DNA of 64,000 bases from Nemertoderma westbladi (lineage: Eukaryota > Animalia > Xenacoelomorpha): assembly GCA_032718475.1 (NCBI GenBank), contig JAUCBJ010007430.1, positions 61,880 through 125,879 on the forward strand, read 5' to 3'. The stretch's first letter is position 1. Each line of letters starts with the position of its first letter. The notes below the pieces were generated by a model. That model saw only the letters and a list, made by a program, of their open reading frames with translations, made no database searches and was not told the DNA's origin. This document shows, piece by piece, positions 15,489 to 44,581 of the stretch. Made by a program: the position numbers and the translations under genes.

Positions 15489-15890
15489 ACATATCGCCAG
15501 ACATATCGCCAGACATATCGCCAGACATATCGCCAAACGATCAACCAGACGCGTTACTAGACGGTCAACCAGACGTTTTGCCAGACATGTCACTAGATAT
15601 TTCGCCGGATGTTCCGCGAAACATTTTACCAGACATGTCACAAAATGTTCTACCAGACACTAGTAACATATTGACAAATAATAAAGCCGCAGTTTCTCTA
15701 TTGGAGCGGCCTTCTATCGACAAACAACCAGATACGTTACCAGACGTATCGCCAGACACGTTACTAGACGGCCAACCAAACATTTTACCAGACATGTCAC
15801 AAAATGTTCTACCAGACACTAGTAACATATTGACAAATAGTAAAGCCGCAGTTTCTCTATTGGAGCGGCCTTGTATTGACAAACTACCAA
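15489..15890 (+). repeat. Repetitive in-frame linker between RNase H and integrase (12-bp ATATCGCCAGAC x4 plus a longer duplicated block)
   Basis: ISPD repeats and duplicated NILPDMSQNVLPDTSNILTN.KAAVSLLERP. Confidence 0.85.
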
Positions 15891-21400: not shown

Positions 21401-21623
21401 CGCGTTCCCAGACGTTCTACCAACTGTAGTGACAACTGATCGGTCACGAGGAATCGGACGAGGATTCGGGATACCTAATAGACGAATTTGTGAGGAAACG
21501 GTCGCACCGTCTCTCAACGTCCAAGCGAAACCAGTGACTCGCCCCACGAGTCCCATATCGCGAGCAAAGTCACCTGTGCGCAGTTTTCGAGGACGCGGCA
21601 GGGCTCGATCCACTAAGCGATAA
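18449..21623 (+). pseudogene. ORF2 of element A: putative DnaQ-like 3'-5' exonuclease with CCHC zinc knuckles
   Basis: ATG at 18449; the in-frame TGA at 18827 joins ORFs 18341 and 18905; basic C-terminal tail in a shifted frame to 21623. Motifs FYDNEG, LPKMVRNMILDKTVVKIGSGVREDL, YVNT, QYYLAIES, CGKCGVAGHHLTKC, CTYCNIKGHRASEC. Homologous to ORF2 of family B. Confidence 0.75.
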
Positions 21624-22414
21624 AAGGGAGGGCAAGGGTGGACAGAAGACTCGTGAGCCTTTCTTGTGAATTTGCGATTTATTTGAATTATATGTTTTAT
21701 ATTTAATTAGTAAGTTTTGTATTCTGGAAGAACTCATATTTAGTAAGATTTATATTCAGTAAGAATTTATATTTTGCAAGATTTATATTTTATATTTGTG
21801 TTTATTCCGAACTTATGTAATTTATATTGTTCCGAATACTATGCAATTTATATCTTATAAGCAGTATTTGTATTTACAGTGAAATAGAAAGTAAGAGTAG
21901 ATGGAAGACTCGTGGGCCTTTCTTATAGTTTCATTTGTAAAGTGTTATATTTGTATTTAGAAAGTTTTATAGTTAGAAAGTTTTGTACTTAGAAAGACTC
22001 ATATTTGTAATTATTCCGAACTTATGCAATCTACATTTAGGCACGAAAGTATTTGTAATTATTTGAATTTATGCAATATTTGAGATGCAATAGTAGATGG
22101 AAGACTCGCGAGCCTTTCTTATGATTTTCATTTATTTGTATTTGTAATTGTTTGAACTTATGCAATATTGAGATGCAATAGATTTATATTGGTGAATTTA
22201 ATTTAGATTTATATTGTACTTACTTAGTAAAGCCTTAAATATGTAAAGTTTGAATTTGTAATTATTTTGTATCGAATCATTATGTAGAAAGGAAGCATTG
22301 CTTGAAATTTAATTTGTAAATATGTAAGTACGCCCTAAGTATTCTATAATTTGATTGATTATTGGTGAAAACCGTATATTTTATGCACGACAATATCCTG
22401 TTTTCATGGAGCGG

Positions 22415-23233
22415 TATAGAATTATATTCCCCAAATGCCGTGGATTTTCAAAATTTTTATTTTATTCGAATTAACTTTGCTAAAGATTACATTAAGTCCT
22501 CATTTGTATTTGCTATATCTATTGTACTGTATTGTATTGTATCTATTGTATTGCTTTCTATTGTACGATGATTAGTCAAGTGGTTCAGTAGCTCAGTCGG
22601 TAGAGCGTTGGAAATTATATGTAGTGTGTATTGAGTTCGAATCCTAGTAGGTGCGAATTATTTTTTGTGCAGAATTCCAACTCATTTAAATTGACCGCTA
22701 CAAATTAATTGCATTTGCTCGAAGTAAGATTAACCAATGAGACTGTAGTTATTAGATTGTAACCAATGTCGTACAAGTTATATATTTGCTGGACCAATAG
22801 CTATCTTTAAAAACCTGTTAGAACTCATAGAACAATCGAGAATTTTCTCGATTGATTGCGGCACAAATTTGGTATAAAAAGGTGCGATTTCGTTCATTAG
22901 TTATCTATTCTTCAGTATATCTTTCTTCAGTATATCTTTCTTTCTCAGTTACATTATTTTAGATTACATTGTTTATTGTATAATAGTTATTGTTTGATTT
23001 TGTAATAAAAGTTAGAAATACTTGTCACATCTGCCCTTTTCTATCTGTTTTATCATGCTTCACCACGGTGAACTCAACTGAGGGACAGGATGGCTGGCTA
23101 GACATCGGGCCACAGCAATGAACGGGAACATCAAAGGAATGTAGACAGGAGACAACCCGCAATATCATCTTAGTTATTCGCCCATCGCCTAAAAGGTTAG
23201 ACAGCGTTCGATGCCTTGCTACCTAAGTATAAG
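22415..23233 (+). repeat. 3' LTR of element A, truncated by B insertion
   Basis: Follows PPT-like GGAGCGG (22408-22414); matches 6218-6986 with indels downstream of the TATA box. Confidence 0.9.
22582..22656 (+). promoter_or_regulatory. tRNA-derived Pol III promoter module in the 3' LTR of A
   Basis: Same sequence as 6345-6419. Confidence 0.75.
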
Positions 23234-24502
23234 TGTACGCGCTTTTGAAGACCTTTAGCAGTTTAACCTGCCAAAATTTATATGTCTTTTGGTTTATAAA
23301 TAGACTTTAGAAGATGACAAATATTTAATACCAATAAACACAACATTAGCAGAAGCCAGCCTAGTGCGCGTCCATTCACCCGCTGGATATACCCGGGAGA
23401 CTGGATTCTGAGGGCTTAGATTATTATTGCAGTGTAAGCTTACTGTATTGTATTATTCGATTGATCGTTAATAAATTTCTGACTAATATTATTTACTTTC
23501 GGGAAAATATTAACAGTTCCTTTAGGACGTGGCGCTCTATCTAGGTAAACAGAGATATGACTTATACTAATCACAACGGCAAGTCGGTAAGGCTTATGAT
23601 TCACGTATGAGGCGCATTCTTTAGGAAATGCTTAGTTATCAGTCACAATCATGCACACTACCGGTAACACACAATACTGCCCACTAATTTGCCGACCGTC
23701 AATGATTTTTATCATATATAAAGAGAACAGCAACGGACCAATGTAGTGCTTATCAAATAGCATTAAATTCACTACATACACAATAATATAAGTCGCAATC
23801 GCTATATATAACCCGTCTCTCTAACCTGTAGTGTATCAAGAAAATTGGGAAATTTGGGTTCTTTATAAATGTTCTCCAAATAATATTCAACCAACTAATA
23901 CAAAATATGACAACAGTAAAACATTAAGACGGTAGGTTAAGATATGATATGACAAGTAATGATATGTGATATATGACATAGACTGGACTGATAACAGTTA
24001 TACGCTCTATAATCTTGAGCCTACTAATGTTTCTTCTAAAGTATGAAAACGAATTGATTCTAGAGCCGGTGTTCCTGGCCTAGATACCAACAACACAAAG
24101 TATATCAAGAAAAACAGTAAGACTGAACACTCCTAGTATCATCGGCCGAATATCTACACGTCGACAGAAAAAATCGCTCTGATTGGCTCAAACCAAACAA
24201 AGAACCGTGCGTCCAATGGCTGTTTCCATGCCAGCAACCAGCTGCTAGATGTCGCAATCTGGATCATCAAGGCCAAGCCGTGTAAAGGTATTTGGGGCAT
24301 TGCGGGTTTTTTGCCTTACCATGTCCGCCAAAGCAGGTATATAGACGAATGACTTTTATGTCCGTTAAAACACCTTACGGTACCTTGCGGGCGAGGGGAA
24401 TATATATACAGTTTAGAGAACCTTTTTAGAGTATTCCAGCGCCTGGGGGGAAACTGGATTGCGAAGCAAAGGGGCCAGTTATATCCCACAGAAGCTTTTA
24501 CA
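23234..24502 (-). repeat. 3' LTR of family B (duplicated copy), 1269 bp, TGT...ACA
   Basis: Minus strand TGTAAAAGC...GCGCGTACA, preceded by GGGAGCGG; matches 44582-45852. Confidence 0.93.
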
Positions 24503-24580
24503 CCGCTCCCAGAAAATGGGATTTGAGTCTATAAAATATACAAAATCACAGTTTCTAATATACATAAATACTCTAAACAG

Positions 24581-27500
24581 TTAGTCTTTCTTGCGTGGAC
24601 GGCGTTTACGCAGTTTTTTAAAGCTAGCCAGAGTCCTTTTCTCTTTGGGGCGAGCCACTTTACAAGGAGGGCTATAACTCCTGGGTGAAGGGTGCAATAT
24701 GATTGCATCAGAGGGTGTAGGATTATGGTCGGTGTATCCGCCAGTCGAAGTACCGGGTTGATTGACATCATCGTCAGGGGAGAGAGGTCTAACGGCTTTG
24801 AGAGCTCGTTTCAAGACAGCCGCTCTTACGGGTCCTTTACGAGTGGTCTGAACGAGGGCCGTGGGTGGACCATAGGCAGTTAGAAACCTCCGGGGTTTAA
24901 TGGTCCTTTCCAACTCGCGTTCGCGGGCTCGGTATTCGTAAGGCCGTCGATATACTTCCTGTAACTCGGGGTGTGAGTTAACAAACAAGTCTCCATAGTC
25001 CGGATCCTGACGGATATAATTGATTAAGTTATAGGAATGAAGGTCGCTAGGATTAACACTCCTGAGAAATTTGCGTACGAATTTGGTTGAAATACATTCT
25101 CCGACGCGCTTCAGTAGCTCGTAACTTGATATGCGTGATTTCTGTTCAACCGAAGCGAATAGATAAGGATGGAATGCATAAACTCCTTCGTAAGCGTGTC
25201 TGGGATAATAGCGATGGCGCGAATCACAATGTAAATCAGCGTTCGCTTCCCAAACTCTGATGTAACGTAGTGTGATCATTTCATCTACGCTTTCCAAATC
25301 GTGATTAAAAGGGCAATCGAAACTGGCATGTCCCTTTAGTTGACAATGGTGACATTGAGTCATAAATTGAGGGCAAACTGCAAAAATATGCAAGTTATTG
25401 AGTCTGCAATATGCGCAATAAATTTCCATAGTCGGTTGTTCTTGGAAATAGGAACAGCGGACGTTGGTGTCCATGGGCGTATCGTGGTCTCTCGATGCGC
25501 ATAACCGACAACGTTGCCTAGAAACATAGTTGGCATGTCGATAATCGTACGCAGTGAGACACTGTGGACCTTGATACCATTCTATGATGTAATCGTTGTC
25601 GCTGTTCCGGGGCGCGATAGGCTGAATCTCTTCAGATTCTAGACATATTGGTTCGTCTTCCAAGTGCATAGCTGAAGTGGGCGCGTCTGTCTCTTCAGGT
25701 GGACCTATTGTCTGAATTTCCACGACAGAATAACCTGTGGGGATTCGAGGTCTTTGTATAACAGAGGAGTGCAAGTTCGATATACAAACTTCTTGGAAAA
25801 CGGCGAATCCAGCGCTATCCAACTTCTCTGCAGCTGAGTTTCTTAGGCTGAGCTTGGTCAAAGCGCGGTCTTTAAATTGGCTATCCACGTTGCAGAACGG
25901 GGTTAAAAATCGCCGGAAACATTCGAAACGGATGAATTTATTATGTTCATCTAGCTTAGCGAGTTTGGTCCCAAGTATTAATGGATGGGCGCGTATAGTA
26001 CGACTGCACACATCGGCTAGCCAACCGGCAAGTGCGGTGTTTTCAAAGATCGTGTATATAGCTAAGGAGGGACGGAGTGGAACACTCATGAAGCTATACA
26101 CGGCGCCAGGTGCGGTCAATGGTCCATCAAAGTATAATCGAGAATAATGGTCTCCGTATACTTGTTGATAGTTAATGGGATTTCCGACTTTGAAATTCCA
26201 TCCGTATTCCTGAAAGGCAAGATGTCCGATGGAAGTTCGTTGCACCTTTGTAATGTTGCTAGGCGTATTAGCATACATAGTGCGGAAGAAACCTCGACCT
26301 TCTGCCCAGGGAGCAATCAGCTGAGTATCAACGAAAGGGTATGGAATGTTCTCCATATTCCGAAAGTCGTTTTGGAGATCTCCATAAACAGCTGACCCGA
26401 TTTTAAGGATTCTTTCGTTGAACAACATCTCGAGTACGGGCTGGGGTAACATCGATCCATCGATGCCCATGGCCGGTTTGCGTTCGGTGTCAATGACGTA
26501 ACGCTGCGCGAGTTCGAATTGTCCATGTCGGAGATTCTTTTGTGTTTCGGTGAGAGTTTCAAAAGAATAATCAATCACGTCGGAACACGCTCGAGTAAAC
26601 ACGTGGGTAGAACCAGCTAATCCGCATATGTGGATCATGCGCGTAGTTCCTAGTTCTCCGACCGGAACGCTACCTTCATTATCGTAGGTGACAACTCCAT
26701 ACATCTCAATAACATTAAGAGTTTCATTCCACTCCTTGGTGGCGTTCTCTAGGGTCATCCCTACTGGATGCCACAAGGTGGCGCATTGGTTAGCGTCAGG
26801 GAGATCACTATACTTCATATGCCGAGTGGTATACGTCTCCACATTTCCATATCTTTGTATTTTCTCTTCTTCAAATAATACATCTAGATTCCAATGGACT
26901 AATCGAGTTTTAATAAATCCATCGAGATTATAAGGAGGTTCTATATCTTTCTCGATTCGAGAAATGTTATATGGTTTTCTAAATGAGTTTACCTTTACTA
27001 ACTGATCCAGATGTTTCTGCAATTGTTCGAGTTCGACAATGTCTAGAGGGTTTATTAGTGGTAGAAACTTTAAATTATGTGTCGGGTCCTCTGGTTTTAC
27101 CATATAATATTGAGTCAGATTAACGTAATAAGGGTGGTCTTTAATCCCATAAAACGAGTTCTGTAAAGGTCTAGCGCGTATGTTGACATCGTGTACCATA
27201 CGACGGACAAGATCCGCACGATTGTCCGGAGGTTCAACGAGTATACCGTCAACACGAGCGGCCTCGATCGGCGGACGCTGTAACATAGGGGCGTCAGCGA
27301 TAAGATTTTGCGATCCTGTACTGATATCAACCGGTTGAGGTTGTATCGTCGCGAAGAGCTTGTCCCCGAAATGTGGAATCATCGAGGGATGATGAATGGT
27401 TTTAGAGTAGAGGTCCGTCATGAGGATTTGAGCTTCCGGTTGGGCTAAAGCGGCTTCTTCTCTCTCTTCCAGTTTCGTGTGTTTCTCTTCGAGTAGATTT

Positions 27501-28515
27501 TCTTCCGCTTGTCTCTGTAAGCGTTCATCTAAAAATTCTTGTAGAGAATACGTGCGTCCAAGCTCGATGTCTTCCTCGAGGTTTTGGATTTCTCTATCGA
27601 ACTGTGGCAAGGCTAACTCCTTCACCGATTGGACTTGTTGTTGTAATTTACGTTTCTCTAAACAATCTTGTGTTCCCTTTCCGATTTTCTGTCGAATGGC
27701 GTCTAAAGCGTTTCTTATAACGCTCTCCTCGACTTCCGTGGCGGGTTGCATCGGGTTTAATCCTGGACGATTGTAAGGATCAAAGGGCGATATTAGCTGC
27801 CCGCGTCCCAATCCGGCTAAGTAGGATGGGCGGATGTCTAACGAACCCACTACCGGAGCACCACCGATTAATTGTTCGGGTAACACTAAGTCTTTGAACA
27901 GGGAATATAGTTCGGGAGGATCAGTGATACTGTTAGGATCAAGAGTTTGAGGTCTCACTAGGGAATGAGGAGGCCTGACCGAGTATTCCGGAACTCTGAT
28001 CATGGGTTTATTCAGTGATCGTTTAAGACGAGCGATCGCGGGTGGTATGTCGAACAGGTTTCGCTCGAAACTCCCGTAAGTGTAACGCGTAAAACTATGT
28101 TTAGCGCAACGTCTCCGCGGATGTTTGTGTCTTTCAGTTTGTTGGTTGGGTCTAGGGCATTCGTCACAATAATACCAAAGACGTACGTCCTGTAGAGGAA
28201 ACGCGGGTGAACGTTCTCCAGTTTTGCAATATTCTTCCATTTGTTCAAAACTATCCGGGATCACAGGTAGTGGACGATCGGCGGTAAGATACATCATAGT
28301 GAAATAGAGCCGTTTGAGTTCTACGACAGGGTCGTGATGTATACCTTGAGGATATCGAGTCTCTAAGTTCTGCTGACTAGCGATGTTGAGATAGGTTTCT
28401 CTCAAAAATTCTAGGTATTCGTTGAAGTCGATGCGTTTATCCGGTTCTTCAACGTTTTCTCTTTCCAGTCTATTACGAATAGAATTTTCGTGATCTATTC
28501 TCGGTTTATCATTAC
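24581..28515 (-). pseudogene. ORF2 of family B, 5'-truncated by the duplication junction but open for ~1310 codons
   Basis: 1320-aa ORF in the track (first ~9 residues come from junction sequence). Motifs TYDNEG, LPQPVLEMLFNERILKIGSAVYGDL, FVDT, PLRPSLAIYTIFEN, CHHCQLKGHASFDC. Confidence 0.85.
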
Positions 28516-28528
28516 TGTGAATTAGCTG

Positions 28529-30321
28529 TGAATCACAGCTCAAATGGAGAGGATGCGTGTATTGGGCTATTACGTCACCTCCAAGAGCAGTCCTACAATA
28601 TTATTTAGCAATAGAGTCGTCAGTGAATGTTTGCTTAATCGCCGACATTGTGTCTCGGACTCTCAAAAGACATCCACTTTGTCTCGGAGAAGATCATACG
28701 TTCTACATGGAAGGGAGAATTCATACCGACGTGTTTAGACGATTTCTTGAACCCTTCTACAACTCCGACGCTCAGTGAAATGCCTTTACTCGAGCAGGAT
28801 TTAGTATATTTCGAGACGTGTATCTTCGCTGTGCGGGATCTCTTATCGAAAGGCCATCTATGTTTACATTGTTACTCTATGAAGGAGAACGTATCGTGGA
28901 GATTACGGATGAATCACGGCAGACGCGCGCGCCTATCGGTGATGATTTCGAAGTAACTACTACGATCACTGACGATCCTTTAGAGGAACTTCTTGAGATA
29001 GAAAGGAACCTCCCGAAGAAATCTCATACAGAGATTCGACAACTTGAAGCAACAGATGCTGTAGTTTGTATACAACCTTCAGAAACCTACCAACCCATAG
29101 ATCCAGATGATTATGATTATAGTGTGGGAGGAAGCGCTCGACCAATTGGAGATCTTATATATGAACGAGTGTGGTACCCTGCCAATACGATGTGTGGTAA
29201 ATGTGGCGTCGCTGGACATCATTTGACCAAGTGCAGTGGAAAGCACATTACTACGACTCAACTAATCTGTGGATGGTGTGGAGATCAAGGGTCTCATACC
29301 TTTTATACTTGCTGGAGATTTATGGCTCAATATACTTATTGCAATATAAAAGGGCATCGAGCATCTGAATGCCAACTAAGAGACATACCTTATGAACACG
29401 AATCTGTAAAACTCGTGAGAAAACTATTTGATGAGTGGGAAGATTTAGCCGACGAACACGTATCGGCACAAAGAAGACGATTTCCGATGAGGGCGCATCT
29501 CGGATTTTGGGCGGTAAATCCCCAAACGATGATGTCGGAAGGATACATCTCCGCTATGCCCCAATATGACGAGCTTATCAGTAGTCGATATTTTGCCTCA
29601 CGACAGTGGATTCCGAGTGGTGCACGAGTATCTATTACAGATTCACCCAGACAACAAGAACACGTGGAATTTTCAGAAAGTCGTAAATCGTATCACGTAT
29701 GGTGAATTTTATCGTTTCTGAACTGAAAAGCGGAATAAGGGAGCTTGGTTAACCGTCGCATGGGCATACCGGGCCGCGTTTTACCACAAACGTATACGAG
29801 CGAGCGTATTCGAGGAAGAGGAGATCCTAGAGGCGACAAATATACCAGCCACTCCGGTTGCGCCGTCTGCACGTCACCCTCGGGAGGACGGACAGGGTAG
29901 GATCATAAGGGTCCAGAAAGTTAGCCAACAATTAAAGAAGTCTATTAATATAGAAGAACGCAAGGGAGTTGAGCCGACCATTCGAATTACTCGGGATACG
30001 GTATCGCTTCCTAGAGAACCAACAGGAGGATCGGGACATACACCAGCTGATCCAAAGGGGGCGCAAGCTACTCTTGGGTCTGCGTCATCCGCTTCCCGCG
30101 CGTTCCCAGACGTTCTACCAACTGTAGTGACAACTGATCGGTCACGAGGAATCGGACGAGGATTCGGGATACCTAATAGACGAATTTGTGAGGAAACGGT
30201 CGCACCGTCTCTCAACGTCCAAGCGAAACCAGTGACTCGCCCCACGAGTCCCATATCGCGAGCAAAGTCACCTGTGCACAGTTTTCGAGGACGCGGCAGG
30301 GCTCGATCCACTAAGCGATAA
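28529..30321 (+). pseudogene. Duplicated 3' half of element A ORF2
   Basis: Copy of 19822-21623 with an added frameshift near 28778 and a 9-bp deletion. Confidence 0.9.
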
Positions 30322-31112: not shown

Positions 31113-31287
31113 TATAGAATTATATTCCCCAAATGCCGTGGATTTTCAAAATTTTTATTTTATTCGAATTAACTTTGCTAAAGATTACATTAAGTCCTCA
31201 TTTGTATTTGCTATATCTATTGTACTGTATTGTATTGTATCTATTGTATTGCTTTCTATTGTACGATGATTAGTCAAGTGGTTCAGT
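31113..31287 (+). repeat. Duplicated A 3' LTR, left part (continues at 43929-44581)
   Basis: Matches 22415-22589; interrupted at TCAGT by element B'. Confidence 0.92.
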
Positions 31288-32474
31288 TGTAAAAGCTTTT
31301 GTGGGATAACTGATTCGTTTGCCTTGCTAACCAGTTCCCCCCCAGTCGCTGAATACTCTAAAAGGGGATCTATAACTCGAATAGCGCAAGCTACCAGCTT
31401 ATTGGCTGATTTGCTGTACGCAGGTATCTGGGCTCTGTTTAATCGGCCAACCAGCCTAGGAAGGTTGCGTCATAGCCTTGTTTTTGTATCTCCCAATAGA
31501 ATTTGAGTTAGCCTTGATTTTGACCTATCACAGAGCTACTGAACTGAAATTTTCCTATCTCACTGCTCTTTCTCTGTGTTGAACGGGAGCTTCGTGGAAT
31601 AAGGGTAGTTGGTATCCTCGTATAGAGGGTAGTCACGAGTTTTTCAAAGCCACGAAAGAACGGCTTTGTAGTGTTTTGTGCTTTCTGCTTTTTAGCTCAA
31701 CACTAGTAGGTTTAATTATAAGGACATATATCCTTTAACTGGCGGCTGTGAATATCACACGGCTTTTAATAACTGCTGCTAAAAATTACCTGCTCAATCA
31801 ATACTGTATACTGCTATTTGTTGTCGGTTATTCATTATATTGGTTGATGAATTATTATATTGGAATAACGAGAAATAACCCCGAAAACCCAATATTCTTG
31901 ATATACCTAAGGTAAGAGAGAAAGGTTACCAATAACGATTGTGACTTATGTTAAAGTGGTTTGAAGTGAATCTAATGTAATTTGATAGACCCTACATGAG
32001 TCAGTCTGTGTTCCTTTTATATGTGACTAAAATCAGTGAAGATTGGCAGATTAGTGTGCAGTATTGTGCAGCATTGTGTATGAGTGAGTCTGTTAAAGAA
32101 GCAATTCCTAAAGAATGCGCCATATATGTGAATTATAATTAAGCCATATCGTTGTGAGTAGTTTAAGTCATAACTCTGTTTATATAGATAAAGCGCCACG
32201 TCTTAAAGGAACTGTTAATATTCCCGAAGGTGAATAATATTGTCAGAGATTATATAATACTGTCAGTCGAATAATACATTAGGCTTACATAGCAATAAAA
32301 TTAAACCGTCGAACCCAATCTCCCGGGAATATCCAGCGGGTGAATGATCGCGCACAGATTGGTTTCGACTAGTGTAGTGAATCAAATACTTGTCATAGGC
32401 TAAAAAGCGATTTAATATCTAGAAGACATCTTAATTTGGCGGATTAAACTGCCAAAGGTCTGAAAGCGCGAACA
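31288..32474 (+). repeat. 5' LTR of B'
   Basis: TGTAAAAGC...GCGCGAACA; direct repeat of 42742-43928. Confidence 0.96.
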
Positions 32475-32486
32475 TTAAAGGATATA
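32475..32486 (+). promoter_or_regulatory. Non-tRNA primer-binding site of B' (TTAAAGGATATA), complementary to LTR 31727-31738
   Basis: Starts at the first base after the LTR; no TGG; 12/12 complementarity to TATATCCTTTAA. Confidence 0.75.
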
Positions 32487-32542
32487 GCTTCTTTATTGCA
32501 GTAAGCAATAAAGTTGAAAATACCGGTCAACCGGTAAACTTG

Positions 32543-33415
32543 AACCGGTACTTCTGTAGGTCAGTAGGCCCAACTGCAAGAACCTGTACTGCTGTAGGCC
32601 CGTAGGTCCAACTGCCAGAACCGGTACTTCTGTAGGTCCGTAGGCCTAACTGTCCTAACCGGTACTTCCCGTATAAGTACATTAGTATTATTCGATTTGA
32701 TTGTTGTATACCGGTAGGTCTTAGTACTTAATCAGGGAACGGCCGCCCTGGTTTTTTATTGAGATTTTACTTATTTCTGTCAAGTTTTATTTGTTTGTAG
32801 GCCAGTATTGAACAGAAGAAGTGTAAGCCTGATAAGATTGTGCAGACAATTTGTAGGCTGAGCTGTTGTCTGATTGCTGTTAAGTCTGAACGGATTGCAG
32901 TGTGTGTAGATCACCTGTCCGATAAAGAACGGTTAGGAAGTAGGGGCAGCGAACGCTGTAAGGTAAACCCCCAATTAAAGAATAAGTCGTACTACTGGGT
33001 TAGAACGCATACTACCTAATTATTTCGGAGTCTGCATGTCCTGTAGTTTATTTAGGCTTGAGAGTAGTCTGTCATCGTTTAGTCTGTACTTTGTTTGTGT
33101 AAGTCTGTACGGGTAGCGTATAATTTTATTTAGATAATTTGTAGGCTGGATAGTTGTCTGGCTGTTATTAGGTCTGAACGGATTGCAGCGTGTGTAGATC
33201 ACTTGTCCGATAAAGAACGGTTAGGAAGTAGGGGCAGCGAACGCTGTAAGGTAAACCCCCAACTAAAGAATAAGTCGTACTACTGGGTTAGAACGCATAC
33301 TACCTAATTATTTCGGAGTCTGCATATACCGTAGTTTGTTTAGGCTTGATAGTAGTCTGTCAGTGTTCGGTCTGCATTTTGTTTGAGTAGTTTGTACGCG
33401 TAGCGTAATATTTAT
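32543..33415 (+). repeat. 5'UTR repeats of B': 38-bp unit x~3.3 (32543-32668) and ~288-bp unit x2
   Basis: Read directly; the same arrangement is present in B at ~61995-62121 and ~61260-61820. Confidence 0.85.
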
Positions 33416-34724
33416 TATTCAGAGTTTATGCGATTATTCGCAACATTCATTCCCCAAGTTTGTTCCTACAGTAATTGTGTTTGTTATACATACCGCTATA
33501 GTTAAATTAACCCCGGTACTACACGGGCTGCTTGGCGTAGGTAAAGACTGGTGATTTTGTGCATCGGTCACTCCAGCAGATGCCGTGGTTCTTTTAGCTG
33601 TTCAAGTATATTTAACTACTGATTATCTGTTGTACAAGTACTCGTACCTAATTTAGGGTTTAGTGTACAGTACTTTCCGAAGTAATTAGTGTAGACATTA
33701 TATTTGTGTTGTAAAGTGGTTGATAGGCACGTTCGATTAGCTCTATTAACTTCTAGGTAGGAACACTCCGTGATACATAACGTAGAACCTATAGCGATAC
33801 GGCTATAGGTCGTCAGGCGGTGGTATTTTCCTATCTGGACAACGCAGTGTACTTACTACTACTTATTATTTCAAATACCGTAGTACCCTGTCCGTTGTAA
33901 TAACCAGATTCTAACCCTTTGTTAGGCTGGTTTGTAGACTTCTTGTAAAATCACCCTAAAAATTCGTATTTTGTGTTTTTTGTAAATTTTTGTGTTTATT
34001 TAGAGATTGTAATCTCAACCCGAATTGTACGTAATTTGTAGTATTAAGTAACTTAGGTAAATTAGAATTATTTGTTTTAGTGTCCTATAAGTAACACTTC
34101 ACTGAAAGCGCACCGCTTTGTGTAGTGATTACCCCCAGAAATAATAACATTTATTTCAAACATTGACAAAACCCATTAAAACGGGTATATATATATTATA
34201 AATCAAATCTAACGATTTATAAATATTAGGCCTACCATACAACCATTAGGTCTCAATATCAGTTGGATTACTGCTCAAATAACGGTAGTAAAGTAAGTAA
34301 AGTAACCAAGTAACCCTAAAAATTCAGAAATTCAATTATTTAAAGTAATTGATATACCGGTATTTACGATAGGCCTATTATCTTTATTTCTATAAATTTA
34401 GGCTAAAATTATACCGGTACTTGTAATTAATTCTAGTCCAGAATTATATATACTACAAACTGTAAGCTGTATACCGGTATTCCCGATAGGCCTATTATAT
34501 ATTTATATATATTTGTGCTAAATTTATACCGGTATTCGGTGATAAACCTAGTCTGTAATAATAGTTATATATACTATAAGCATACCGGTATTCTAATATA
34601 TTATATATCACGCTACACTGAGTGGCAGTACCGGTAATTAATTACTAGGCTAACAGTTAATACTGAGTTACTAGACTTGCTCAGACTGTGATACAGCAGT
34701 AGACATTCAACTGTATACATAAAC

Positions 34725-37700
34725 ATGTCTGATACTAAGCAGAACCTGTCAGACAGTATATTAGATGTAACTATCTGCGACTCAGATAGAGGCGTAGAAC
34801 CTTCTAGTCGTAAGTTCAGTTCACCTCCCACTGTGAGGAAAGCCATCCCTCCAGTAGTAATAAAAGAACCTAGGCTGGTCCAACATCGTAGGTCTATCAT
34901 AGGCACTCGAGCTCAGGTCAAACGGGACCAAGAAGCAGCGGAACAGCAACAACCCGCGAGCCAAGAACTTACTTCTCAACAGCCCGATAGCTCCAGTAGT
35001 GAAGATACGGTAGAACTGACACCCGAACGCGGAGCAAGGATGATGGATGAGGCTTATTCAGATCCCCTTCTCATCCTTCCTGCAGCCGTACTCACTAGGT
35101 TATTGATCGCTGTGGAAGAACACCAGATCGATTGGGCGAGAAGCCAGCGTTCAACTAGAGATAGTTATGCGGGATACACGAGTGAAGAACTGAAGTCTAT
35201 TGTCGAGTCGCAATGGAACTTCCCCGGACCCGGACTCCCGTTTGATTTATCAGAAGCTGCCTGGGAAGACATACACCGGATGGGAGTAGCCAAGGAAACC
35301 ATCGATCCAGCTGTGTGGAAGAGGTCCGCAGCCGGATACGCACAGGGATTCTTCAGCTCTATAGAGCGATTAAAAGAACAACTGTTTCATCAACCTCAAG
35401 GACCTCAAGAGCAGGGATTGCTGCTTTATCAAGTTAGAGAAAGAATTCTACGAATCAGGCTAATCTTATCGGCCTTTGAGGAGGCTTCTAAACGAAGACA
35501 AGACACGTCGTTGCAAGTCGCCGTCAAGACTTGGTTTCAAAGGGTGAATCTCCAGGTTCAAGGAACTGCTCAGTGGAAAGCTCAGCTAGAGGAGCGATCA
35601 ACCCATGGAGAATCAACAGACGCCACTTTTTCCCAAGTGGAAAGTGAAGCGACGGCAGAGAAACGGCATAAGAGGGATGCCATTGACATCTATCTGTCAG
35701 ACTATCAACGTTTTTTAGGTGATGACGAGTTGAGGAGAAGGTTAGAGGGACTTAGCCCTAATAGTGAAGGAACCAAGCTTGTGTTGGATGCCATCGATGT
35801 GGAAATGAGGGCTGCGAATCAGGCTAAATTTGATGAACAACTCCGCCTGACACGAGTCCAAGAAGAACATGTAAAGAAAAAACGTATAGAAGATAGAAAG
35901 ACAGCAGCAGCGGCAGTGGCAGCGGCAGAAGCGGATAGAAAAGCGGCAGAGGCAGCGGCAGAGGCAAAAGCGGCAGCGGCAGAGGCAGCGGCAGAGGCAA
36001 AAGCGGCAGCGGCAGAGGCAAAAGCGGTAGCTGCGGCCGAAGCGGAAAGAAAAATAGCAGTAGCAGAAGCAGAACGGAGGGCGGCTGAAGAAACCATCCA
36101 ATTAGAATTGGAAAACATTCAGGAGAATCAAGACTGCATAAATAAACAGTTAACAGCTAGTAATATGCAGATGATGAATCGATCTACTCCCAAAAGACAG
36201 GGATATACATCATCTGAGGAAGGCGATACCACCGATACTGAAGGCAAAGGAAATAGGTCTCGTTTAAGCAGACGTAAAAGAACATTCCACCGTCAGAAAT
36301 TGCCTGATTTGCCTCCAGCTGTTAGAAGGCAACTAAATAACACCAACTTAGGTAGTACAGAGCCCACAGACCAAATAATTAAAATAGAAAGACTCCCTAC
36401 TATAGTAGATGAGCCTGAAATAATTAGGCCTGTTCTTGAAATCACCCCTTCGGTGATAGACACACCTGTGCTCCCTGAAGCCACCTCTAAATTCCCTCTA
36501 CATAGCACTAAGCTACCTGTGCCCAGTAGAACTGCCCAGGAGACAGTTCAGGTCCTGGACCCCGAGCGAAATATTCCAGATTTGTCGCCCGTTGTCCCTC
36601 GTCCGCCCGCTACAACGTTGGCGACTCCCGCTTCGGCGGTCGAATGGGTGGACGAGAGACGACGGGGGATGGATCTCCTGCTCGGACAGATGCAGGAGAC
36701 AGTTCTACAATTCAAAGGCACAGTAAGGGAAAGTAGGCTAGAGTTGCAAGAAGTGCAGCAAAGTATTGCGCTAGAACGCGATAAATTAGTAAATTTACAA
36801 AAGGGTATATCAACACCCCCTGTAACAATGTGTCAACCCGTTAGGTCTGAAGTATCCCATGCGCAAGGTGTGGAGCCTACACGCATCTATACTGCTAGCG
36901 AAGTAGAAACTCCTATAGTGAACCCTATTAAGGGTAATTATAGACCTGTTGATAATGATATTCCATATAGAACTGATCATAATCCGAGAAATTTATATAC
37001 CGATAACTCGATATTAAATAACACGATGGCCCAAGAAAGTTTTACGCGTCAAATGGCTAGAACCGAAGCCCGGCAAGCGGTGAAGGTGGGAGAGATCGTC
37101 AAGTTCAATGGAGATGAGATGAAATGGTTACCTTTTAATGAATATTACAAAGATAACATACAGAACTCTGTGCTATCTAATGGAGAGAAACTTAGATTCC
37201 TCATCGAGTGCTTGGAAGGATCTCCCAAGTCAATGGCGTTAAAATTTATTGGACATCCAGATGGATTAAGACAAGTTTGGGATACACTAAACATCAGGTA
37301 TGGTAATAGGACTAACATAGCTAGGTATTTATATGCGAAATTAATGGCGCCCCGAAAGTTTCTTAGCAGCGGGATTATAGAGTTTTCCGATGAGATTCAG
37401 GAGATCTGTAGACAACTAGATTGGTTAGGTAAGTCTCATGAATACCAGAATTCTATGGTTGTAGGAGCCTTAGCATCTACTTTGCCCAAGGGTGGAGTAG
37501 GTACACGCTGGGACAAGAAGGTGTTATATATGATGGAACAACAACAACGAGACCCTACCATGGCTGATCTCATGTCATTCTTAGATGGAGAAGTGAAATT
37601 ACAGCTCCTAAGACAGTCCAGAGAGAAGACACTGGAAAACAAGGTAAGTGAGAAACCCGTCTCCAGAAGAAAGGTAACACCAGTGTGTTATACCGACGAC

Positions 37701-39677
37701 GGCGAAAGCCAAGCTTCCCAAGGGGAGGATAGCGGGAAAGACACTGAAAGATCTTATTATGTCAATAAAATGCCTAAAGATCAGGTAAGTAAATCCAAGT
37801 CTCGACCCAATGACAGAAGGGAACCGGTACAAAAAACCCTTCCTACGTCTCCTAAAAGAATTCAGGTGAGAAAGCCCGAGGAAAGAACAAGTGTGCACCA
37901 CATAGCACAGGTTAAAGTAAGTAACATCAAGCCGAAATGTGTGCTGTGCGACGGGCCCCACCGTTTAAATGCGTGTGATAAATTCCTGAGGAAATCACTC
38001 GAGGATAGACGTGAAGTCATGTGGGATAAGCGGTTGTGTTATAATTGCCTCAGACGAGGACACCAACGGCGAACCTGTAACTCCGACGCAAGGTGTGCAA
38101 AGTGCGGCGCAAAACATCATATCTTGTTGCACACGGAATTCGAACGAAACAGCCCGAGTCAGGTAAGTGAGTCCGAACTACATGTCCAATTCAGTGATGT
38201 GAACGACACTGATCAATCTGAGATGGAAGGATTCTATACGGACGAGTTCTCCGACCAAAACGAATCCTGTTACCTAATAAACACCACCGCAGTGTATCGA
38301 GTACTCGTGCATGAGGAAGACACAGACAGCGACCTTACCTTAACTACTTCCGATCAACAACCATCTTGGAAAGCGCCAACTTCCAATATAGGGATCCGAG
38401 AATTTCCTGTAGTCCAGTTACGGGTCCACGGACCTCAGAAGAGCTATATAGTGAACGCCCTCCTGGACTCCGGTAGCACAGGAACATTCATCGATAAAGA
38501 ACTAGCCGAAGTCATCTTTGCTGGACAACCCAAGTTCCGAACCAAGCTAAACATGTCAGGGATCATGCAGGTTTGGAATTCTACTGTAGCTGCCGACTAT
38601 TATATAGGTGAGTTGTCCACTCCACAGGATAAACTAGGAGAATACAGTATAAGGTCAGTAAAAATGGTGGCAATAAAGAACTTCGCTACCACCCAAGTGG
38701 AACCTTATAATTGGGACGAAGATGATCATGCCCAACAACTTAACATCCCTAGATTCGACACCGATTATCCTGGAGTACAAATATTAATCGGTCAAAACGC
38801 GCATGAGGCGCTGGAGACATTAGAGAAACGACCTACTCAACCGCAACCACTTCAGACCTATGCGGTAAGAACTAGAGTAGGTTGGTACCTTACTGGACCT
38901 TCCCGTAGAACGCTCAGGGAAAGACTGCTTCAAGATCGCGTCTGCCAGGTGAGTGAATGGGAAGATGATACTAGTGAGGGAGACGACCCAACTGAGGGAA
39001 CACCACACTCCTCAGATAATGACAATCTTAGCTCCAATGTAGATCAATGGAGATATTGCCCCAAGAAGTTTAATCCAACTGACATCGCTTCCAGAGGAGC
39101 AACTCCTCAAGAACTGACAGATACTACAGACCGGTTAGGTGAACCCGACTTCCTGAGTAAGGAGGATGAATGGCCTCCCCATCTTACTCCGACTGAGATT
39201 AGACCAGCCAAGGGAGCGGAGAAAGTTAAACCTAAAACCCGGACGGGTGGAGCGGAGTTATTTGAACCCGGGATAGATCTGTCGGTATTACATATTGCCA
39301 GGGACGACGCCGTGGATCTGGACCTCCCCACCGCGAGTGGATCCTTCATGAAGATCAGAGAGAGCGATTGGAGCCCTGGAACATCAGACGTCTCGCAGGG
39401 ACTCTCACCTCTCCTGCAGAGAGCGACGGACCACTATAGCTCCTGGAATCGGCTTTGTAAGGCCGTCGTGTACCTAGAGCGATGTTTCTATCGTCACTAT
39501 TCCAGGACGAAGAGGAAACCTGGAATTGTATTCGGGATGCAGCGACTCAATCACCCAGTCGGTCGTTTGTGTTTACCGGAAGGGAATGGAGGACTCTCCG
39601 GAAACTGTGGAAGGCAAGATTCTCTTCCCACGACCACCTCCCTAATCCTTCAAACATCTAGGGACTCCATAACGTAA
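34725..39677 (+). CDS. gag: Gag-protease of B' with in-frame fused pol remnants (1650 aa)
   Basis: Open frame; knuckles CVLCDGPHRLNAC, CYNCLRRGHQRRTC, CAKCGAKHHILLH; protease LLDSGS; deletion junctions at ~39024 and ~39512 relative to 51814..59949. Confidence 0.88.
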   Translation: MSDTKQNLSDSILDVTICDSDRGVEPSSRKFSSPPTVRKAIPPVVIKEPRLVQHRRSIIGTRAQVKRDQEAAEQQQPASQELTSQQPDSSSSEDTVELTPERGARMMDEAYSDPLLILPAAVLTRLLIAVEEHQIDWARSQRSTRDSYAGYTSEELKSIVESQWNFPGPGLPFDLSEAAWEDIHRMGVAKETIDPAVWKRSAAGYAQGFFSSIERLKEQLFHQPQGPQEQGLLLYQVRERILRIRLILSAFEEASKRRQDTSLQVAVKTWFQRVNLQVQGTAQWKAQLEERSTHGESTDATFSQVESEATAEKRHKRDAIDIYLSDYQRFLGDDELRRRLEGLSPNSEGTKLVLDAIDVEMRAANQAKFDEQLRLTRVQEEHVKKKRIEDRKTAAAAVAAAEADRKAAEAAAEAKAAAAEAAAEAKAAAAEAKAVAAAEAERKIAVAEAERRAAEETIQLELENIQENQDCINKQLTASNMQMMNRSTPKRQGYTSSEEGDTTDTEGKGNRSRLSRRKRTFHRQKLPDLPPAVRRQLNNTNLGSTEPTDQIIKIERLPTIVDEPEIIRPVLEITPSVIDTPVLPEATSKFPLHSTKLPVPSRTAQETVQVLDPERNIPDLSPVVPRPPATTLATPASAVEWVDERRRGMDLLLGQMQETVLQFKGTVRESRLELQEVQQSIALERDKLVNLQKGISTPPVTMCQPVRSEVSHAQGVEPTRIYTASEVETPIVNPIKGNYRPVDNDIPYRTDHNPRNLYTDNSILNNTMAQESFTRQMARTEARQAVKVGEIVKFNGDEMKWLPFNEYYKDNIQNSVLSNGEKLRFLIECLEGSPKSMALKFIGHPDGLRQVWDTLNIRYGNRTNIARYLYAKLMAPRKFLSSGIIEFSDEIQEICRQLDWLGKSHEYQNSMVVGALASTLPKGGVGTRWDKKVLYMMEQQQRDPTMADLMSFLDGEVKLQLLRQSREKTLENKVSEKPVSRRKVTPVCYTDDGESQASQGEDSGKDTERSYYVNKMPKDQVSKSKSRPNDRREPVQKTLPTSPKRIQVRKPEERTSVHHIAQVKVSNIKPKCVLCDGPHRLNACDKFLRKSLEDRREVMWDKRLCYNCLRRGHQRRTCNSDARCAKCGAKHHILLHTEFERNSPSQVSESELHVQFSDVNDTDQSEMEGFYTDEFSDQNESCYLINTTAVYRVLVHEEDTDSDLTLTTSDQQPSWKAPTSNIGIREFPVVQLRVHGPQKSYIVNALLDSGSTGTFIDKELAEVIFAGQPKFRTKLNMSGIMQVWNSTVAADYYIGELSTPQDKLGEYSIRSVKMVAIKNFATTQVEPYNWDEDDHAQQLNIPRFDTDYPGVQILIGQNAHEALETLEKRPTQPQPLQTYAVRTRVGWYLTGPSRRTLRERLLQDRVCQVSEWEDDTSEGDDPTEGTPHSSDNDNLSSNVDQWRYCPKKFNPTDIASRGATPQELTDTTDRLGEPDFLSKEDEWPPHLTPTEIRPAKGAEKVKPKTRTGGAELFEPGIDLSVLHIARDDAVDLDLPTASGSFMKIRESDWSPGTSDVSQGLSPLLQRATDHYSSWNRLCKAVVYLERCFYRHYSRTKRKPGIVFGMQRLNHPVGRLCLPEGNGGLSGNCGRQDSLPTTTSLILQTSRDSIT

Positions 39678-41334
39678 CAACATATGGAGTGGGTGTGTGA
39701 CTCTATTATTTTATATTATTTTATTATTTTTATATTTCTGTATGTATTACTATGTAATTTTATTATAATCGTTTTCTTTAATTTTATTCAGTAGAATGTT
39801 ATTTTAGCGATTATTTAGTAGATTAGTGCAATATATATTCGCGTTTATTACTTAATTACGTATATATTATATTTAATGCGACGGCAAGAAATAATTCTTT
39901 TTCTCTTTCCTTACTGTCCGTATCATATTATAAATACGTGACTACAGTAAGATGAAATGTCCGTACTTATTAAAGTACAATAAAGCCACTACTATATTTA
40001 AGTATTATTGGTAGGCAGAGTATTAGGAATGCAAAGTTCAGATCCTCGTGTCTCGGCTAAACCAAGCTCTGGGTAGACCTTGGAAACGACTTGCCTCTTC
40101 ACACTGACATTGCTTCGTGCGATATTGCTCTCATACCGTATATTAAATAATACATATAGTAGCGTGATGTCCCTTTAACAGTAGCGTAAAACGCACATAA
40201 ATTTGTTAAACCTTTTGACCATCTGTAATTCTAGTCGATTAAGATATCGCGGCACCCACCGATATACTTGAAAGACAAATTCTAGAATCAGTGGTTAACG
40301 TCCCCAGACAAGTTCTGGAATAAATCGGTGCCCATCTCAAATATTAATTAGTTAATATTTACAAATCAAATAAGTCAAAATCTGTAAAATTCAGATCCTT
40401 CAACAATTCTAGTCAATTAAGATATCGTAGCATTTACCGATATTCTTAAAGAGACAATTTTCTTAGAATTAAGGATCTTGTGTCCCTAGACATGTTCTAG
40501 AATCAAAATATGCCCATTTAATTATCAAATAATAAAATTTCAGGGAATAAATTTAAATTCATGTCTTTTAATGAATTTAATAAATTGCCATTTTACGCAA
40601 TTTATAACATTCCCAAAAATTCCATTAATTAATAGATCAAGGGAGCGGAGATTTATCTTATTATGCATATGAGTGTGCGAAAGTCTCCCAAACATAGTCA
40701 ATAGCCGATAAAATTCATAAAGTCATGTATAAAACAGGACATTGACTATTAAAGAATTACTATTAAATAACATCCCAGATCTGTATGCATTGGAATTACC
40801 CTAATTCTACCGCTAGCTTTGCATAATGTCACCATAGCAACAACCACGCTAGAATTAGAATTGAGTTAAAAGAACAATAGAAAGCTTGTCCCATTGAATA
40901 GCATAGGGAATAAATAGCGCACTACTAGTATCCAAGGATACATAATAATACAGTGACATTCTGGAAGGCATTGACTAACGGACAAATGGCCCGAATGTGT
41001 GTAATTTGTGACAAGTTGTGTGTGTGGTATTTGTGAGTTTATAGGTGAATGTTACTGCTAAGGTGTGTTTACAGTAGCCAGTCGCAATCGTAAAAGTAAC
41101 CTAACTCTCCAAGGAAAACCTGAAGTACATCTAAGCCTTTGGGACGGACAGTCGAGTGACTTGTGCCGGTTGTCGTTGTCGTTGTGCGGCTACGTCGTTG
41201 GCGAAAGTACAGCGGCGACGACACATCGGCGCTGAGGATCTCGTACTGTCCGGGGGTAGATTGGGGTAGGCAGCGACGCCCGCTCGCCTAAATATAAACT
41301 CATTATAATATGGATAAACTCATATATAGCAGAT

Positions 41335-42663
41335 ATGACGGAGTTGATAGAAGATGGTCTTGGTATCGGGGAGCGATATACTCTACTTTTACAAGCGTTT
41401 GTTGATAGCTTAATACGCGGCGACGTTAGTCCAACTGCTGCGGAGGACGATGGTCGTTATATCGAACCGCCAATGTCCCAAGAGCAGCTCGCGCGAGTTG
41501 GACTATAGAAAATTCGCTGCTCGATATACGCAGCGTAATGGTACGTATATGGGCTTCTTAACTACTGATCATCCTATCGATTTACACAATACGGACTATG
41601 TCGACTATATATCCTGCCCAGCGGAGTCGGAACCATAAACTGAAATTCGAATGCGAAAATTCTATTCGAAATCGGCTCGAAAGAAAAGACATTAAAGAAA
41701 CAAATAAACGCGGTAACTCCAACATATATTTGGAATTCTTGATAGAAGCATTGTAACAACAAATAAATATCATTCGCGTTTCCTCTACCAGACGTGCGTC
41801 TTTGGTATTATTACGGTAAATGCCCTAGACCCAGCCAATAAACGGAAAGACATAAACATCCACGGAAACGTTGTGTTAAACACAGTTGTGTTCGTTATAT
41901 TTACTGGAGTTTCGAGCGAAACTTGTTTGACGTATCACCTATGCTCACTCGGCTCTAACGATCCTAGAGTAAACCTACAATCAGAGTCCCGGAATACTCG
42001 GTCAAACCTCCTCATTCCTTAGTTGGACCTCAGACCTGCGATCCTGGTGGTGTCGCGGATCCTCGCGGACGGTATTCACTGTTCAAGATCTAGTGCTACC
42101 CTAACAATTAATCGGTAACACTCCGACAGTGATTTCTAGCTAGCCGCCCATCTTACCTAGCCGGATTATGACGCAGACACCTAATATCACTATCCAACTG
42201 TATGGTCGTCCCGTTTAACGCGATACAACCCTTCATCAAGGTGAAGGAGAGCGTTGTACGAAACGAGTTAAACGCTATTCTATAAAGATCAAAAAAGAAA
42301 CCTGCGTTTGTTCAGATAAACGTAAGTTATAACAGTAAGTCCAATCGATAAACAAATTGGCCTTATCTCAGTTCGATTGGGAAACCTCGAATCTCAAAGA
42401 AGATATCAAGCTTAGAAAACCCTATTCTCTGCGAGAGTTTTGGACGAACGTATCCCATGACAAGCGGAGGAAAATCAGCTCGAGGAGAAGCATATCGAAA
42501 TGGACGAGACACCGACCGTAAACCCAAACCTTCTAATGCAATCATATTGCACCCTTCACCCAGGAGTTATGGCCCTCCTAGTAAAGTGGCTTCCCCCAAA
42601 GAGAAAATGACTCTTGCTAGCTTTAAAAAACTGCGTAAACGCCGTCCGCGCAAGAAAGACTAA
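41335..42663 (+). pseudogene. Degenerate, internally deleted ORF2 of B'
   Basis: Begins MTELIEDGLGIGERY (compare MTELIEDDLGIRERY) and ends KKLRKRRPRKKD; many frameshifts; exonuclease and knuckle region missing. Confidence 0.88.
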
Positions 42664-42741
42664 CTGTTTAGAGTATTTATGTATATTAGAAATTGTGATT
42701 TTGTATATTTTATAGACTTAAATCCCATTTTCTGGGAGCGG

Positions 42742-43928
42742 TGTAAAAGCTTTTGTGGGATAACTGATTCGTTTGCCTTGCTAACCAGTTCCCCCCCAGT
42801 CGCTGAATACTCTAAAAGGGGATCTATAACTCGAATAGCGCAAGCTACCAGCTTATTGGCTGATTTGCTGTACGCAGGTATCTGGGCTCTGTTTAATCGG
42901 CCAACCTGCCTAGGAAGGTTGCGTCATAGCCTTGTTTTTGTATCTCCCAATAGAATTTGAGTTAGCCTTGATTTTGACCTATCACAGAGCTACTGAACTG
43001 AAATTTTCCTATCTCACTGCTCTTTCTCTGTGTTGAACGGGAGCTTCGTGGAATAAGGGTAGTTGGTATCCTCGTATAGAGGGTAGTCACGAGTTTTTCA
43101 AAGCCACGAAAGAACAGCTTTGTAGTGTTTTGTGCTTTCTGCTTTTTAGCTCAACACTAGTAGGTTTAATTATAAGGACATATATCCTTTAACTGGCGGC
43201 TGTGAATATCACACGGCTTTTAATAACTGCTGCTAAAAATTACCTGCTCAATCAATACTGTATACTGCTATTTGTTGTCGGTTATTCATTATATTGGTTG
43301 ATGAATTATTATATTGGAATAACGAGAAATAACCCCGAAAACCCAATATTCTTGATATACCTAAGGTAAGAGAGAAAGGTTACCAATAACGATTGTGACT
43401 TATGTTAAAGTGGTTTGAAGTGAATCTAATGTTATTTGATAGACCCTACATGAGTCAGTCTGTGTTCCTTTTATATGTGACTAAAATCAGTGAAGATTGG
43501 CAGATTAGTGTGCAGTATTGTGCAGCATTGTGTATGAGTGAGTCTGTTAAAGAAGCAATTCCTAAAGAATGCGCCATATATGTGAATTATAATTAAGCCA
43601 TATCGTTGTGAGTAGTTTAAGTCATAACTCTGTTTATATAGATAAAGCGCCACGTCTTAAAGGAACTGTTAATATTCCCGAAGGTGAATAATATTGTCAG
43701 AGATTATATAATACTGTCAGTCGAATAATACATTAGGCTTACATAGCAATAAAATTAAACCGTCGAACCCAATCTCCCGGGAATATCCAGCGGGTGAATG
43801 ATCGCGCACAGATTGGTTTCGACTAGTGTAGTGAATCAAATACTTGTCATAGGCTAAAAAGCGATTTAATATCTAGAAGACATCTTAATTTGGCGGATTA
43901 AACTGCCAAAGGTCTGAAAGCGCGAACA
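42742..43928 (+). repeat. 3' LTR of B'
   Basis: Preceded by PPT-like GGGAGCGG; ends ACA followed by the TSD. Confidence 0.96.
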
Positions 43929-44581
43929 TCAGTAGCTCAGTCGGTAGAGCGTTGGATACACATTATATGTAGTGTGTATTGAGTTCGAATCCTAGTAGGT
44001 GCGAATTATTTTTTGTGCAGAATTCCAACTCATTTAAATTGACCGCTACAAATTAATTGCATTTGCTCGAAGTAAGATTAACCAATGAGACTGTAGTTAT
44101 TAGATTGTAACCAATGTCGTACAAGTTATATATTTGCTGGACCAATAGCTATCTTTAAAAACCTGTTAGAACTCATAGAACAATCGAGAATTTTCTCGAT
44201 TGATTGCGGCACAAATTTGGTATAAAAAGGTGCGATTTCGTTCATTAGTTATCTATTCTTCAGTATATCTTTCTTCAGTATATCTTTCTTTCTCAGTTAC
44301 ATTATTTTAGATTACATTGTTTATTGTATAATAGTTATTGTTTGATTTTGTAATAAAAGTTAGAAATACTTGTCACATCTGCCCTTTTCTATCTGTTTTA
44401 TCATGCTTCACCACGGTGAACTCAACTGAGGGACAGGATGGCTGGCTAGACATCGGGCCACAGCAATGAACGGGAACATCAAAGGAATGTAGACAGGAGA
44501 CAACCCGCAATATCATCTTAGTTATTCGCCCATCGCCTAAAAGGTTAGACAGCGTTCGATGCCTTGCTACCTAAGTATAAG
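43929..44581 (+). repeat. Duplicated A 3' LTR, right part, including the A and B boxes
   Basis: Matches 22585-23233. Confidence 0.92.

Follow-up and report, generated by a model that had tools for sequence, protein, structure and literature searches.

The window analysed here, a stretch of 64,000 nucleotides from contig JAUCBJ010007430.1 of Nemertoderma westbladi (GCA_032718475.1), holds Bel/Pao elements of two families, A and B, the second of which occurs as two variants, B and B', on opposite strands (Table 1). Pao-type Gag-Pol domains in the order PR-RT-RH-IN place B within Bel/Pao. Its protein has 334 homologues, and all 120 among the matches listed bear PF05380. The closest RT-RNase H relatives in the databases are 36-43% identical to B, and the named ones come from cnidarians, echinoderms, molluscs, a crustacean, a tunicate and fish. 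Both B and B' contain a purine tract.

Table 1 Features of the Bel/Pao elements in the window and signals around the predicted primer sites
Feature	Position	Strand	Remarks
B' element	31288-43928	+	from self-BLAST and ORF maps
B' 5' LTR	31288-32474	+	1187 bp, TG...CA
B' 3' LTR	42742-43928	+	purine tract just before
B' target-site duplication (TSD)	31283-31287 and 43929-43933		TCAGT
B' gag-protease frame	34692-39677	+	
B' primer-binding site (PBS)	32475-32486	+	directly after the CA end of the LTR; exact complement of 31727-31738
B' predicted self-primer site	31727-31738	+	LTR position 440-451; copy in 3' LTR at 43181-43192
TATA-like TATAACT	31371-31377	+	kept in B and B'; ~356 nt upstream of the site (B/B': 356-416 nt)
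Conserved block upstream of the site	31680-31726	+	kept in B and B'; putative role
Splice-acceptor-like pyrimidine tract and TAG	ending 31695	+	~ -32 from the site
Initiator-like ACACTAGTAGG	31700-31710	+	~22 nt before the site
Splice-donor-like site downstream of the primer site	31909-31917	+	present in B too; not joined to the primer
Poly(A)-signal-like GCAATAAA in the LTR	32292-32299	+	can pair with leader 32492-32499
U5 hairpin ahead of the LTR end	32435-32456	+	8 bp; kept in B via two one-sided changes; similar to the U5 stem of Tf1
Hairpin directly 3' of the PBS	32491-32513	+	9 bp; identical in B and B'
B element	63451-44582	-	from self-BLAST and ORF maps
B 5' LTR	62187-63451	-	1265 bp
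B 3' LTR	44582-45852	-	near-identical duplicate at 23234-24502
B gag-pol frame	51814-59955	-	2713 aa open; Pfam DUF1759, Peptidase_A17, Integrase_H2C2, DUF5641, in order
B extra ORF	45931-50198	-	env position, two frames
B PBS	62176-62186	-	11 nt; complement of 62950-62940; near-palindromic
B predicted self-primer site	62940-62950	-	LTR position 502-512
Family A, two head-to-head copies	6218-23233 and 5119-1	+ and -	around a 54-bp tandem array (5117-6231)

B' is non-autonomous though young. It lacks about 1.8 kb of pol, namely the RT and RNase H part that B has, and its two LTRs are identical at 1184 of 1187 positions. A tandem segmental duplication (99.4%; 19822-28515 and 28529-49864) covers parts of A and B, and as B' is inserted in the second copy only, it is younger than the duplication. 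B spans 18.9 kb, including the extra ORF, and its LTRs agree at 1220 of 1276 positions, with the differences unevenly distributed (39 in positions 1-450, 1 in 451-972 and 16 beyond). This unevenness and the absence of a TSD at the element flanks indicate that B is probably chimeric. The B LTRs become nearly identical a short way ahead of the primer site, possibly at a boundary of strand transfer or conversion.

Family A is the sister of B on an RT tree (support 97), and its LTRs start with TA, not TG. They include a tRNA-like stretch (6345-6420 and 22580-22655) with motifs that we take to be A-box- and B-box-like, and it is in this stretch of a family A LTR that B' is inserted (insertion point 31287/43929). 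Neither ARAGORN nor Rfam scored the stretch; ARAGORN returned no tRNA in the 64-kb window, and Rfam gave no match at E ≤ 1 in 6200-7600 and 31200-33200. The extra ORF is common to A and B (30% over 349 aa; 18830-21007 +, 47055-50198 -, 24581-28600 -) and combines a D-x-E motif, a zinc knuckle and a weak resemblance to DEDDy-type 3'-5' exonucleases. Searches of Pfam and PDB gave nothing significant for it, and only one relative was found among 1.84 billion representatives; a lead from the Atlas scored 0.85, and a single-sequence fold reached a pLDDT of 31.

The first-pass annotation of this DNA had claimed that both variants lack a TGG-type tRNA site and instead carry a PBS complementary to their own LTR, and the sequence bears this out. 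TGG is absent at the PBS start in both B and B'. The first 12 nt after the 5' LTR of B' are the exact reverse complement of a segment inside that LTR, the first 11 nt in B likewise complement a segment of the B LTR, and in each the 3' end of the primer segment meets the first base beyond the LTR. In the LTR alignment the two sites lie in register behind ACAYTAGTAGG...TTATA and differ at four positions, all of which are mirrored in the PBS, an agreement that counts as one comparison because it draws on two PBS/site pairs. A fifth PBS difference, at position 12, is not mirrored, and the pairing in B is therefore 11 nt long. Identity between B and B' around the sites is only ~45-60%, and the three B-type LTRs of the window all carry the B site without change. 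Comparable matches arose in 20 of 40000 simulated LTRs for B' and in 62 of 40000 for B, and matches to the element's own LTR, counting the PBS, number only 2 among the 10256 internal 12-mers of B' and 9 among the 16324 internal 11-mers of B. Predicted duplexes with the own site reach -11.6 and -10.6 kcal/mol, as opposed to +0.9 and -0.6 kcal/mol with the site of the other element. The B PBS, as a near-palindrome, repeats its own site directly at 10 of 11 positions and can dimerise (-5.0 kcal/mol); this weakens B taken alone and not the B/B' pair. The complementarity in B and B' is real and far beyond chance. With 12 nt in B' and 11 nt in B, both at offset 0, it also falls within the self-priming rule of a plant survey, which asks for at least 10 complementary nt starting 0-5 nt after the LTR (PMC6317226, excerpt).

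The 18-nt tRNA PBS of the ICTV profile was not found in B or B' (no TGG), a result that rules out priming by a whole tRNA only. Since protein domains define Bel/Pao, the missing tRNA PBS is attributed to an incomplete description of the family. Bases 1-5 of the B PBS (ATAAC, 62186-62182, minus strand) equal bases 1-5 of the Tf1 PBS as given in an excerpt of PMC11042837, a likeness that is probably coincidental because B' differs. Three further pairings were considered and set aside. A spliced primer has no candidate in B', and the one in B, a 10-nt match with non-canonical splice sites, does not reach the length of the contiguous match. A pairing of leader 209-221 with LTR ~980-1050 (11-13 nt) involves nearly the same sequence in both variants, and about one such pairing is expected by chance (estimate). 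A 9-nt match beside the B' PBS is absent in B.

A profile query yielded 110 loci with Bel/Pao pol, 78 from metagenomes and 32 from MAGs. The latter (L079-L110) sit in GTDB prokaryote assemblies and are most likely host contamination of the MAGs. Nineteen of the 110 loci, in which both LTR copies diverge beyond a common end, were chosen by eye; a TSD confirms this end in 5 of the 12 checked, and the ends of L009, L058 and L109 are doubtful. Under a first rule (offset 0-2 nt, any GT..AG, at least 10 nt) 10 of the 19 matched their own LTR, nine across a splice junction and one contiguously. Canonical donor and acceptor sites occur in eight of these nine, though only GT..AG had been demanded, compared with 0 of 121 chance spliced hits (11130 control positions). 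The second rule, set once the first result was known, allowed an offset of 0-4 nt and demanded canonical splice sites. It identified a PBS with a self-match of 10 nt or more in 14 of the 19 loci (controls: 11 of 2226 positions), 12 of them spliced at canonical GT-AG sites within the LTR and two contiguous like B and B'; the 14 loci collapse to ~12 families. Pairs drawn from different elements matched in 6 of 420 cases, three of them inside near-identical families. Another 63 loci without a defined LTR end gave 15 that score, as against 3 in a complement-only control.

In the spliced-type loci (L004, L006, L031, L038, L066, L067, L073, L079, L083, L089, L091 and L095), which make up ~10 families spread over the tree, 10-15 nt pair only across the junction, the introns measure 67-697 nt and just 3-9 nt of primer precede the donor. 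The sister loci L079 and L083 have changes mirrored between PBS and exon end, and L089 has a TGG one base beyond the LTR as well. The non-matching loci among the 19 include L101, which has a TGG tRNA-type site and a self-match of 4 nt. In L085 a single mismatch breaks the match that its sister L007 has. Exact pattern scans for the hairpin behind the PBS returned nothing from the metagenome or viral contigs, and protein scans of the viral contigs returned no relatives. In all 12 self-matching relatives checked, the gap between pol and LTR is 50-288 nt, which leaves no room for the extra ORF, so that this ORF is not needed for the signature. A role of the ORF as primer trimmer was rejected on the same grounds and for want of a significant Pfam or PDB match.

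The first-pass annotation had staked its reading on complementarity recurring in other relatives, and the 14 loci agree with it. Its further claim that self-priming arose in this lineage finds no support in the RT tree, a quick, unrooted tree of 102 rows covering Bel/Pao of marine-type datasets without named reference elements, across which the trait is scattered. The spliced label (9 rows) needs six changes on this tree, and 177 of 500 shuffles were as low. To judge from these loci, a self-complementary PBS is probably old and widespread in Bel/Pao and not special to B.

The conserved block upstream of the site contains TTATAAG, with TTATA at about -10 from the site in B and B'. We take ACACTAGTAGG, with its ACAYTAGT motif, to be initiator-like. 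A TATA box near -30 is lacking in both variants, as had been noted from the outset. Transcription starts at 31727 and 62950, which had been predicted, find no support in this arrangement or in the relatives, whose TATA boxes lie 29-142 nt upstream of primer or donor. In the six relatives with a clear TATA, the nearest box stands 142, 140, 124, 124, 36 and 29 nt before primer or donor. As four of the six fall at 124-142 nt, an internal primer is no less likely, and at least some relatives would seem to have primers internal to the transcript. In B and B' the conserved TATAACT is a candidate far promoter.

When the RNA is folded from the site itself, the helix between primer and PBS has a pair probability of 0.9-1.0 in B' and up to 0.95 in B. 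A leader of 22-32 nt lowers this to ~0.5 in B' and 0.1-0.5 in B, and with an unspliced leader of 320-380 nt the helix is absent. The folding would thus count against a long leader, and it is weighed lightly because long-range folds are unreliable. B and B' could also form the third duplex of the Tf1 'pretzel', for which 3 of 50 and 2 of 50 control windows were equally good; it competes with a local hairpin and is unenriched among the 14 relatives.

The B/B' family is abundant in the host sequencing runs, all seven of which are contigs. Only one PBS letter, 32479, is listed as varying in them, with C in 37 contigs of X1 (26% of depth), a run that may be the source of the window, and in 28 of X3 (28%), the two runs coming from separate studies. 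B has C at the equivalent position, paired with G in its own site, and under the self-primer model, copies with C at 32479 should have the matching change at 31734. Alternatively, this C may be a common unpaired variant, which would speak against the model. Contig depth at 31719 is 506867 in X1 and 301449 in X3, with ~26000 at 31628 and ~1100 at 31750, a profile of depth and not of copy number that weakly hints at a site-holding block kept across subfamilies with varying flanks. A few host contigs run from the LTR end through 4-10 PBS bases (32479-32484) into unrelated DNA and could be PBS-tailed insertions, deletions or chance. In run X4, which is RNA by guess only, no GT-AG joint occurs among the matches listed.

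Self-priming in one form or another is very probable in B and B'. It is favoured by the position at the LTR edge, the length of ~11 nt as in Tf1, the mirrored changes and the 14 of 19 unrelated loci; of the original proposal, the lineage-specific origin and the transcription start at the site lack support. The form towards which we lean, if only somewhat, is that an own-LTR segment of 11-12 nt, internal to the transcript but near its 5' end, primes the minus strand in cis instead of a tRNA. Transcription would start upstream of the segment, most simply at the initiator-like ACAYTAGT ~22 nt before it or farther up with removal of an intron. The segment would fold onto the PBS next to the U5 hairpin, and a cut at its 3' side by the RNase H of the element, as in Tf1, would free a 3'-OH. 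Plus-strand synthesis would copy the primer into the new PBS, whereby a change in the LTR enters the PBS in one cycle. From standard LTR replication, a primer derived from the element would impose exact complementarity, and its copying in each cycle would give rise to four exact mirror changes without stepwise compensation. Such copying is in keeping with a complementarity that begins sharply at the LTR edge, keeps to 10-12 nt from family to family and in some loci appears only upon splicing. B', without RT and RNase H, would use both in trans.

Against the internal cis primer stands sister family A, which has an undefined LTR end and gave no clear self-complement. A primer with a leader would also need a second cut or a stop of RT, neither of which is known from Tf1. 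On this reading B and B' would be the unsplit version of a broader Bel/Pao arrangement, the primer of most sampled relatives being divided by an LTR intron. More tentatively, and with slightly less than even confidence, much of Bel/Pao may have left tRNA priming for a non-cap internal self-primer that is built by the spliceosome in most sampled families, B and B' being intron-less and having their PBS rewritten each cycle.

An alternative closer to Tf1, in which the transcript starts at 31727/62950, its first 11-12 nt pair with the PBS and a single RNase H cut suffices, would draw on known chemistry and would account for the sharp 11-12-nt length, the highest helix probability for RNA starting at the site, and a U5 hairpin and possible third duplex in Tf1 order. 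We regard it as rather unlikely, given that no TATA lies near -30, that initiator-like and acceptor-like motifs are found 22-32 nt upstream of the site, and that the spliced relatives, with 3-9 nt of primer before the donor and a TATA mostly 120-140 nt up, indicate that the group can use internal primers. The covariation would be explained equally by a primer acting in trans, whether supplied by a solo LTR, by a separate short transcript of the LTR or by another packaged RNA through its 3' LTR. The distance of 750 nt between site and PBS, the poor folding onto the PBS in long RNAs and the abundance of the family in the host runs agree with this. The perfect match of both the chimeric B and the young B' to their own LTRs is nevertheless simplest in cis, no sign of a short transcript or of a terminator after the site was seen, and a trans primer appears very unlikely.

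The pairing could also be structural, closing R-U5 for packaging, dimerisation or poly(A) control, with priming left to another molecule such as a tRNA fragment. Other leader-LTR pairings near the poly(A)-like signal, the near-palindromic B PBS that can dimerise and the ICTV description of Bel/Pao as tRNA-primed (PMC8742986) are in line with such a role. It remains improbable, if less so than a trans primer: the pairing occupies the exact primer site and would block another primer, the PBS varies by family and yet matches the own LTR, often only once spliced, and the tRNA-type locus L101 has no self-match beyond 4 nt. Chance, or a functionless inverted duplication at the DNA level, might be suspected in AT-rich sequence with a near-palindromic B site. 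The simulated LTRs and the four mirrored changes argue strongly against it, and the spliced matches of relatives do not exist as contiguous DNA; this reading is largely refuted and its probability is close to nil.

Based on these comparisons, B and B' are best read as self-priming elements, in which a known mechanism recurs in modified form within a family that is described as tRNA-primed; the priming, the cut and the start site are inferred from sequence. ICTV and the papers searched treat Bel/Pao as tRNA-primed and call its replication poorly understood. If self-priming holds, it would occur in all three LTR-retrotransposon superfamilies, Bel/Pao being the third, and may be the usual mode for Bel/Pao of marine-type datasets, and LTR finders that demand a tRNA PBS would miss or mis-score many of these elements. 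Were the primer internal or built by splicing, reverse transcription would be coupled to the RNA processing of the host, and the route of primer maturation would be new relative to Tf1. The host harbours the young B/B' family in abundance, so that host RNA and long-read copies should reveal directly where transcription starts and which primer is used.

In the main texts and excerpts of the openly searchable literature, no paper on self-priming in Bel/Pao was found; the supplements of Bel/Pao surveys may list PBS types. The words primer, PBS and tRNA do not occur in the main text of PMC3118150, excerpts of PMC8220671, PMC5443660, PMC5445492 and PMC3601003 contain nothing on Bel/Pao priming, and Bel/Pao is absent from the self-priming list in the excerpt of PMC6317226. 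The ICTV profile of Belpaoviridae (Semotivirus) gives tRNA priming from an 18-nt PBS for tRNA-Arg or tRNA-Gly and a genome of 4-10 kb (PMC8742986). B and B' share with this family the order Gag-PR-RT-RH-IN (B only), TG...CA LTRs, a 5-bp TSD (B' only) and a purine tract, and differ from it in having no TGG site and, for B, in a length of 18.9 kb with an extra ORF. The rotifer elements Juno and Vesta carry a DEDDy exonuclease as ORF3 (PMC5408684, excerpt); the extra ORF of B lies in the env position and weakly resembles an exonuclease, a resemblance below every threshold.

Self-priming has been reported for Tf1/sushi, Tcn1 and the copia TAR lineage (excerpts of PMC6317226, PMC4600332 and PMC5341516). 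The plant elements Tcn1 (gypsy) and TAR/Houba/Osr-1 (copia) are predicted self-primers on the same type of evidence as B and B' (PMC6317226, excerpt), but belong to plants and to other superfamilies. Tf1 transcripts pair their first 11 nt with the PBS and are cut by RNase H behind base 11 (PMC7175516, excerpt). The RNA adopts a three-duplex 'pretzel' structure (PMC10085805, excerpt), and in about half of the Tf1 cDNA the 3' end bears a single-stranded DNA copy of the PBS (PMC11042837, excerpt). Like B and B', the Tf1/sushi chromoviruses of the Ty3/gypsy group (Tf1/Tf2 of S. pombe, Tj1, Tosmo1-3) have no tRNA site and, according to excerpts of PMC7175516, PMC4600332 and PMC10085805, a PBS of ~11 nt at the LTR edge that is complementary to the own LTR, with a U5 stem adjoining. 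B was considered as a member of this group and excluded, as it has Pao domains and gave no chromodomain hit; it would work like Tf1 without being one of its kind. B and B' differ from Tf1 in their Bel/Pao domains and in a site 750 nt from the PBS within a 1.2-kb LTR. A primer at the transcript start is a feature of Tf1, whereas that of B and B' may well lie inside the transcript, and in most of their sampled relatives, unlike in Tf1, the primer is split by an intron.
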